Assembly (NCBI RefSeq): GCF_045037415.1
Contig: NZ_CP173438.1
DNA: 64,000 bases
DNA from: Escherichia coli
GTDB lineage: Bacteria; Pseudomonadota; Gammaproteobacteria; Enterobacterales; Enterobacteriaceae
Direction: 5' to 3' (one strand)
The notes beneath the pieces were generated by a model. The model was given only the letters and a program-made list of their open reading frames with translations. It searched no databases and was not told the origin of the DNA. Numbering within the stretch: the first letter of the stretch is position 1; every line of letters starts with the position of its first letter. Positions 61,877 to 62,756 of this stretch are shown one piece after another. Made by a program: the position numbers and the translations under genes.

Positions 61877-62756
61877 GTGAAACTGAAAATGCAGGATTTG
61901 AGGCTGTTTAATATCGTGTTCGAGAGCGATCCTGGCTGGATACTGGATTTCTCTAACCGCACCTTGTCTGCTTTTTTCGATGAAGAATTGAACATTGATA
62001 TTGATGATGAACGTTATCAGAAAGAGGGGGCGTCAAAAGCCAAACGAGTTAGATGCTTGCTGAAACAGGTTGATCGTGAGAACCGCTCTGCGGGTTCTTG
62101 GTGCGCTCTGGCAGTATAAAACGGAATCCATGCCTGAACAGGCTGAACAAAGCCGTAATGACTATCTTGCACTGATTTCCCGCTTAGAAAACGCTGACAC
62201 CGATGAAGCCAAAGGCGTTAAGCCTGTCCAGGCATGGCATGGTGTTGACTGGCATTCACTTATCGCTGAAATGAACGAGATGAAATCTCTGCCGCCACAT
62301 CCACGTGGTTTTCGGTTTGAAGCCTGGCTTGCTGAACTGTTCAGTATCTTTAAGCTTGCTCCTCGTTCGTCTTTCCGAAATACAGGAGAACAGATTGACG
62401 GAAGTTTCCGGCTGAATGATGAATTTTACCTGATGGAGGCAAAGTGGCATCAGAAAAGAACGTCGGCTGCCGACCTCCATGTATTTGAAGGAAAACTCAG
62501 TACCAAGGCAACCTGGACACGCGGTGTTTTTATCAGTTGGATGGGGTTTACGCCTGAAGGCCTGACGGCTTTTGGTAAAGGGAAGCGGGTTATCTGTGTC
62601 AGTGGTTATGATCTTTACCACTCACTGAATCATAGGATCCCTTTACCCGACCTTCTGGATGCTAAAACCCGGCACGCGGCTGAAACGGGAGAGCCCTATG
62701 CTGAGTTCGACCGACTATATGCACTGAAAGACAAACAGTTCGGCACGCTGAAATAA
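61877..62756 (+). CDS. Mrr-cat / PD-(D/E)xK nuclease-like module: either one frameshifted gene or an 80-aa ORF (61877-62119) plus a nuclease-domain ORF (62070 or 62130 to 62756)
   Basis: GTG start with AGGAGG RBS; downstream frame carries GEQIDGSFRLNDEFYLMEAKWHQK (D...E-x-K motif); the two frames overlap over 62064-62119. Confidence 0.5.

Follow-up and report, generated by a model that had tools for sequence, protein, structure and literature searches.

A predicted AbiJ-NTD2–Mrr nuclease gene on an Escherichia coli island appears split by one base, most probably through a consensus error at a methylated Eco31I motif

Introduction

A 64,000-nucleotide (nt) stretch of Escherichia coli DNA (contig NZ_CP173438.1 of assembly GCF_045037415.1; hereafter the window) contains, on a CP4-like genomic island, two overlapping open reading frames (ORFs) that together resemble a restriction endonuclease. 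This locus raises two questions: whether the frames are two genes or one gene interrupted by a single base, and, if they are one gene, whether the interruption belongs to the organism or to its assembly. An earlier note, made from the sequence alone, had left open the choice between a single nuclease of roughly 290 amino acids (aa) carrying a 1-nt indel and a compact two-gene operon with a small partner protein. Here we report that the two frames are, judged by comparison with intact alleles and homologues, a single 292-aa nuclease gene. The extra base that separates them is most probably a long-read consensus error at a methylated motif and not a real mutation, by analogy with assemblies of related strains; in that case the organism itself probably has an intact gene.

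Two overlapping frames form a single gene

The elements of the gene, in window coordinates, are as follows.

61866–61871, plus strand: Shine-Dalgarno sequence AGGAGG, 5 nt 5′ of the GTG start, read directly from the sequence.
61877–62756, plus strand: the whole gene, 880 nt long in the window against 879 nt in intact alleles, encoding the 292-aa WP_001519098.1, 'restriction endonuclease' (from the Prokaryotic Genome Annotation Pipeline (PGAP), base-by-base alignment and full-length homologues).
61877–62119, plus strand: apparent ORF 1, GTG start, 80 aa, made of the real residues 1–68 and 12 out-of-frame residues.
62070–62756, plus strand: apparent ORF 2, TTG start, 228 aa, made of 4 out-of-frame codons and then the real residues 69–292.
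62081–62082, plus strand: one-base insertion, AA where intact alleles have a single A, the cause of the frameshift (hereafter +A).
62078–62084, no strand assigned: altered Eco31I site GAGAACC, which is GAGACC/GGTCTC in intact alleles.

The 80-aa GTG ORF and the second open frame overlapping it are both present as the earlier note described them. The downstream frame, which encodes GEQIDGSFRLNDEFYLMEAKWHQK, indeed contains an Mrr-type catalytic core, since it matches Pfam Mrr_cat (E=3.7e-5). Using positions 61700–62800 as a megablast query against 5,426 complete E. coli genomes, we found the stretch in 454 of them, and nearly all matches were 1,100 bases long versus 1,101 in the window. An 81-base query spanning the insertion site was found with +A in 12 of 434 genomes and without it in the remaining 422. 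Restoring the frame yields the 292-aa protein that about 420 of the 434 encode intact; the alignment of orthologous E. coli loci proposed in the earlier note thus does reveal an uninterrupted ORF. At the equivalent locus strain Iso00225 has an intact 879-nt gene coding for WP_001519098.1, and base-by-base alignment with this reference shows +A to be the sole difference over the entire gene. Across the island part of the window (50543–64000), +A and one single-nucleotide polymorphism (SNP) are the only differences from strain 219. The single nucleotide had been predicted to lie within 62064–62119, and it does; the site is an Eco31I methylation motif, not the homopolymer region that had been suspected. 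For the record of strain Esc28, identical to the window, PGAP calls a single 'restriction endonuclease' that is flagged 'frameshifted'.

Full-length homologues of about 290 aa (47–88% identity) occur in Enterobacter, Klebsiella, Cronobacter, Yersinia, Photorhabdus, Pectobacterium, Acinetobacter and Aeromonas. Conservation is strong over the N-terminal 80 residues, which are fused to the nuclease in every homologue found. We also considered whether 228-aa database entries represent the same frameshift in other species, and rejected this, as they are in-frame internal start calls. A scan for promoters and terminators gave results at chance level.

The extra A varies among near-isogenic assemblies

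The records Esc1–29 and CNR20191027, a urine isolate from Belgium that lacks +A, are near-isogenic genomes of the sequence type 131 (ST131) kind, each of about 5,156,500 bp. Among 28 of these near-isogenic assemblies, 10 have +A and 18 do not. These assemblies differ from one another at 1–4 positions per 25 kb, far more than true mutation would give in derivatives of one strain. In 59 kb of the fetched assemblies, each of the seven variable sites inspected falls in GAGACC/GGTCTC, where the motif is garbled into GA-ACC, GGAACC, GAAACC, GGTTCTC or GG--TC. In Esc28, GGTCTC has become GGTTCTC, the reverse-complement equivalent of the +A in the nuclease gene, and the same +A form is seen at an unrelated GAGACC (L026:48430) that has no palindrome.

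The only RefSeq carriers of +A besides the Esc genomes are the Taiwanese clone-mates 446 and 463. Both have a second change of GAGACC to GAGAACC (L032:37030), again at a site with no palindrome, by which cutD appears 'frameshifted'; the two strains are further distinguished by a G7/G6 homopolymer indel. In Esc28, papC (L026:41871–41873) is seemingly 'frameshifted' exactly at a garbled Eco31I site, and in Esc27 a gene of the ShlB family (L030, 21850–23615) is likewise seemingly 'frameshifted' at such a site. The papC, ShlB-family and cutD frameshifts are spurious pseudogenes with the same origin as the +A of the nuclease gene. The exact 80-aa frameshift products were found in NCBI assemblies only (ten Esc contigs and one other) and were absent from the Logan, ENA and JGI data. 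By comparison, one intact protein of that cluster is carried by at least 1000 contigs.

The insertion coincides with a methylated adenine

ST131 strain EC958 carries an Eco31I type IIS restriction-modification (R-M) system, M1/M2.EcoMI, on GI-leuX, which is found in clades A and C; GAGACC sites in EC958 are 100% methylated to N6-methyladenine (m6A) at the second A, GAG(m6A)CC, and 5-methylcytosine (m5C) is predicted on the GGTCTC strand (Forde 2015, PMC4659465). The inserted base in the window coincides with this methylated adenine, the second A of GAGACC. A further methylation site is located nearby.

62072–62075, no strand assigned: Dam site GATC, two bases 5′ of the Eco31I motif, so that two m6A bases lie 8 nt apart.

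The proximity of this Dam site may be linked to the error-proneness of the position. We propose that base modification at GAGACC/GGTCTC, with m6A, m5C on the opposite strand and the nearby Dam GATC, would provoke a long-read consensus error that writes GAGACC as GAGAACC, so that the gene would appear split. EcoP1I (AGACC) and Dam alone were also considered as the responsible motif, and both were superseded by the evidence for Eco31I.

Consensus errors at methylation motifs are documented in nanopore assemblies of bacteria, for example at Dcm CCWGG (Wick 2019, PMC6591954), and methylation-motif errors have been reported for ST131 with MicroPIPE, where the motif was again Dcm (PMC8235852). The changes described here resemble those errors in being limited to a strain-specific methylated motif, in recurring at the same sites and in varying between replicate assemblies. 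They differ from them in the motif, which is Eco31I GAGACC/GGTCTC (m6A and m5C) and not Dcm, and they include single-base indels that give rise to spurious frameshift annotations.

The backbone of the window is of ST131 type, with 5 kb 100% identical to many ST131 genomes. Over 44 kb (6069–50270) it has two SNPs (31645 and 36818) and no indels compared with ST131 strain H105. Against strain 219 the same segment reaches only about 95% identity, unlike the near-identical island part at 50543–64000. Since the backbone is of ST131 type but the island resembles that of strain 219, the two have different histories. One other gene in the window is frameshifted: yidJ, a sulfatase gene (27927–29421), is split by a C inserted at 28258, by which GGCA-CTGG becomes GGCACCTGG. 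Many ST131 genomes have this split yidJ with 100% identity, annotated by PGAP as two sulfatase fragments; its frameshift is thus genuine and lineage-wide and not an assembly error. General sloppiness of the assembly was rejected as an explanation, because the sole other frameshift in the window is lineage-wide and the backbone is free of indels relative to H105.

Could the frameshift be genuine?

Several observations weigh against a consensus error. The other six GAGACC/GGTCTC sites in the window are correct, and with a 44-kb backbone that shows no indel relative to an ST131 reference the assembly is much cleaner than those of the Esc strains. The same +A is present, with no other anomaly, in a 12-kb contig (L008) of a fragmented draft genome (GCA_037022885.1) that was probably built from short reads. 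The case for the +A in the window being an artefact is one by analogy with other assemblies. Moreover, genuine null alleles of the gene occur in contigs from metagenomes, short reads and draft genomes, in the form of a 175-nt gap, a −1 deletion, a −2 deletion and an IS1 insertion.

The null alleles were observed on contigs L009, L010, L012, L014 (JGI and Logan), L015, L016 and L011. One lacks nt 67–241 of the gene, and L009 in addition carries an inverted copy of nt 143–261 at the contig end. Others have −1 at nt 201, four bases from the position of +A, −2 at nt 243, or an IS1 near nt 227. Truncated variants of the nuclease also occur in protein clusters. The nuclease gene does decay in nature.

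The best-surviving alternative is that +A is real and the gene in the window a frameshifted pseudogene, the change having either arisen repeatedly at a quasi-palindromic hotspot or spread through recombination between paralogous islands; we regard this as unlikely. Three haplotypes, 39–75 SNPs apart over 2–3 kb, share the same +A (the type of the window and strain 219, the Esc type, and the type of 446, 463 and L008), as recurrent mutation would have it; two of the three have SNP-identical intact counterparts. The clean L008 contig and the other real null alleles count in favour of a real mutation, as does insertion sequence (IS) debris in the neighbourhood. The two island copies that ST131 genomes can hold, which share an identical 1.1-kb gene segment, would permit gene conversion. 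In addition, +A makes an inverted repeat perfect (AGAACC/GGTTCT), by which the free energy of the hairpin changes from −4.1 to −5.5 kcal/mol.

62093–62098, no strand assigned: GGTTCT, a perfect 6-nt inverted repeat of AGAACC (62079–62084) in the +A form only.

Against a real mutation, +A toggles 10:18 among near-isogenic assemblies whose other inspected differences are all in the same methylated motif, and the frameshift product is missing from the short-read collections. An inverted repeat of this kind would result from 3.8% of the single-base insertions possible in the gene, so its coincidence with +A is probably due to chance. Templated mutation at the quasi-palindrome, considered as the cause of the recurrence, was demoted once the same +A form had been seen at the non-palindromic GAGACC sites (cutD in 446 and 463; L026:48430 in Esc28), which also speak against a real mutation.

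A more specific version holds that +A is genuine and recurs at the Eco31I- and Dam-methylated quasi-palindrome GATCGTGAGACC...GGTTCT, having arisen independently in several ST131 sublineages and within clones, and that it switches off, at high frequency, a defence nuclease that may be toxic to its own cell. We think this very improbable; if it were true, the +A in L008 would be a true observation of the off-switch. Even harder to sustain is a reversible on/off switch by phase variation, or a programmed ribosomal frameshift, controlling a toxic nuclease. The mixed state of clone-mates is superficially similar to phase variation, but there is no repeat tract, only a single A that becomes AA, and unrelated genes with GAGACC vary in the same way among clone-mates, which points to a technical cause. 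Neither a slippery heptamer nor a +1 signal is present between 62081 and the stop at 62117 to support programmed frameshifting. Finally, the two-gene operon raised in the earlier note, in which a small acidic 80-aa partner would act with a 228-aa or 208-aa nuclease in the manner of a toxin-antitoxin or adaptor-effector pair, has practically no chance of being correct: the ORFs do overlap, the stop (62117–62119) lies 10 nt before an in-frame ATG (62130) at which reinitiation is conceivable, and gene callers sometimes predict the 208-aa product alone, but contigs with that call have assorted upstream lesions and no conserved second gene, and the reading is excluded because the homologues in many genera are all single fusions of about 290 aa, with the 80 N-terminal residues always joined to the nuclease and the junction conserved in frame, and because one base separates the split form from the fused one.

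A Mrr_cat nuclease domain in a protein that is not Mrr

The restored protein consists of a helical N-terminal module of about 85 residues, a helical linker and a C-terminal Mrr_cat domain. The features of its catalytic part are as follows.

62307–62621, plus strand: Mrr_cat PD-(D/E)xK nuclease domain, aa 144–248.
62319–62444, plus strand: codons of the catalytic signature, E148 (62319–62321), D174 (62397–62399), E187 (62436–62438) and K189 (62442–62444), invariant in 30 homologues.

Residues 144–248 match Pfam Mrr_cat with E=6.5e-5, and all 30 aligned homologues match it at E<=1e-3, the best at 2.8e-10. E148, D174 and E187-x-K189 are invariant among the 30 aligned sequences, and the domain has the restriction-endonuclease-like alpha/beta fold. 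In an AlphaFold (AF2) model with a predicted local distance difference test score of 85, D174 and E187-x-K189 sit on neighbouring strands. The proposed assignment to the PD-(D/E)xK nucleases is borne out by these profile matches and invariant residues. 'Mrr-type' holds for the catalytic domain and fails for the protein as a whole, which lacks the N-terminal DNA-binding domain of Mrr: no Pfam model other than Mrr_cat matches the intact protein at E<=10, and Mrr_N, the winged helix, is accordingly missing. The protein is not an Mrr orthologue, as judged by this domain content. In the E. coli loci inspected no cognate methyltransferase lies adjacent to the gene, so the nuclease is not part of a type II R-M pair. 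Sequence searches of PADLOC, NCBIfam, PHROGs and the PDB with the intact protein and the family profile gave no informative match.

A familiar comparison is the modification-dependent type IV enzyme Mrr of E. coli K-12, which the protein resembles in having an Mrr_cat catalytic domain and in being a solitary nuclease with no cognate methyltransferase, a likeness that relies on a weak Mrr_cat match (E about 1e-5). It differs from Mrr in lacking the Mrr_N winged-helix DNA-binding domain, in place of which there is an unrelated N-terminal module. Further known systems for comparison are the cleavage domains of the FokI/R.BspD6I type and the Mrr-like nuclease heads of defence proteins (Lamassu-Mrr, Avs, the type ISP enzyme LlaBIII and MspJI/AspBHI). 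The nuclease described here is much smaller than these, at 292 aa, and lacks an NTPase, an SMC-like partner and any recognisable domain for DNA recognition.

The N-terminal module resembles AbiJ-NTD2

61877–62129, plus strand: N-terminal module, aa 1–84, AbiJ-NTD2-like and mostly helical (from the structural model, the fusion partners and a published description).

No Pfam, NCBIfam or PADLOC model matches the N-terminal 85 or so residues, and this part modelled alone has no significant structural neighbour. In the AlphaFold model its secondary structure is H5–15, E16–18, H30–38, H54–64 and H67–84, where H denotes helix and E strand. An exhaustive search with a profile of residues 1–84 was used, as a word-indexed search gave short fragments only, and it returned about 2,000 representative clusters. 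In the 28 members sampled, the fusion partners of the module include Abi_C (the AbiJ HEPN domain; four members), TIR, SIR2 (SIR2_2), SAVED with CHAT, a Guanylate_cyc nucleotide cyclase, an alpha/beta-hydrolase, a nucleoside deoxyribosyltransferase and Mrr_cat. Several of the nuclease homologues bear the name DUF3644.

AbiJ-NTD2 has been described as a mostly helical domain of about 100 aa with a strand after helix 1, wrongly placed in Pfam DUF3644 and fused to AbiJ/Ymh HEPN, MRR-type restriction endonuclease (REase), HKD and TIR domains (Anantharaman, Makarova, Burroughs, Koonin & Aravind 2013, Biol Direct 8:15, PMC3710099). Those authors proposed, as a prediction, that the N-terminal domain senses phage and that the C-terminus acts as an effector of suicide or restriction (PMC3710099). 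The protein studied here has the layout of the published AbiJ-NTD2-MRR REase proteins, with a mostly helical N-terminus of about 100 aa that has a strand after helix 1, followed by an Mrr-family PD-(D/E)xK nuclease. With AbiJ-NTD2 proteins in general it has in common a module that is also found in AbiJ HEPN (Abi_C) and TIR proteins, as well as the 'DUF3644' mislabel. By size, secondary structure, fusion partners and this mislabel the module probably corresponds to AbiJ-NTD2 rather than NTD1, judged against the published description, for which BF1118 and gi 91784007 are the reference sequences.

Genomic contexts

The nuclease gene is found at mobile cargo sites, namely genomic islands and plasmids. 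In the window it lies on a selC-side CP4-like island that also carries CbtA/CbeA, an antirestriction gene, a YeeP-like GTPase gene and a YfjJ-like gene. Its neighbours are those named in the earlier note: a YagK/YfjJ-like gene ('inovirus Gp2 family', 60818–61549) upstream and remnants of the IS256 and IS3 families downstream. In the PGAP annotation of identical records, 62810–63995 holds an IS256-family transposase remnant, frameshifted and with an internal stop, together with a second frameshifted transposase on the minus strand. Between the YeeP-like GTPase and YfjJ-like genes there is an AT-rich block (58000–60400) with 33–37% GC versus about 50% in its flanks. Its ORF at 58189–59319 encodes a 376-aa hypothetical protein (WP_000147748.1), which has no PADLOC match and may be further island cargo.

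A second context of the nuclease gene is a paralogous island near nhaC. Some ST131 genomes have both CP4-like islands, on the selC side and near nhaC, each with a nuclease gene (e.g., IPCEC48, 47035–59034 and 4620032–4630396), and the two island types agree exactly over a 1.1-kb nuclease gene segment. In strain TW10590 (L003, 5206–7851) the orthologue lies immediately upstream of genes for an HNH endonuclease, a nucleotidyltransferase and a truncated ThiF-family protein, a set resembling CBASS that suggests a defence-island setting. On IncFII plasmids of Enterobacter and relatives (L017–L022, 7354–8873), a homologue with 49% identity shares 4 nt with the 3′ end of a gene for a serine recombinase (resolvase) at six of six loci, an arrangement that may represent a conserved resolvase-nuclease operon. 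At five of the six loci the homologue is beside an EcoRII R-M pair, in which the EcoRII enzyme and methylase are paired with each other.

Proposed function and significance

The intact protein is predicted to be a single-protein defence or abortive-infection nuclease. Its N-terminal module might sense a cue derived from an invader or restrain the nuclease, and the activated PD-(D/E)xK domain would then cleave DNA, leading to direct restriction or to abortive infection. This role is proposed because the module is fused elsewhere to conflict effectors and because the genes occupy cargo sites of islands and plasmids near CBASS-like or EcoRII genes. Two points tell against it: PADLOC, NCBIfam and the PDB contain no sequence match that would back a defence role, and we found no experimental work on the AbiJ-NTD2-Mrr nuclease family in the literature.

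The biological weight of the split itself is small, since it concerns a routinely annotated gene and is most likely technical. The gene is an ordinary one, already annotated as 'restriction endonuclease', and its architecture was published in 2013. Errors at the Eco31I motif create spurious 'frameshifted' pseudogenes in RefSeq complete genomes of ST131, namely the nuclease gene, papC, cutD and the ShlB-family gene, and they call for caution in analyses of pseudogenes and of outbreak SNPs. Members of the AbiJ-NTD2-Mrr family are widely distributed, occurring on enterobacterial islands and on IncF plasmids, and the family is a sensible candidate for an anti-phage or anti-plasmid system made of a single protein.
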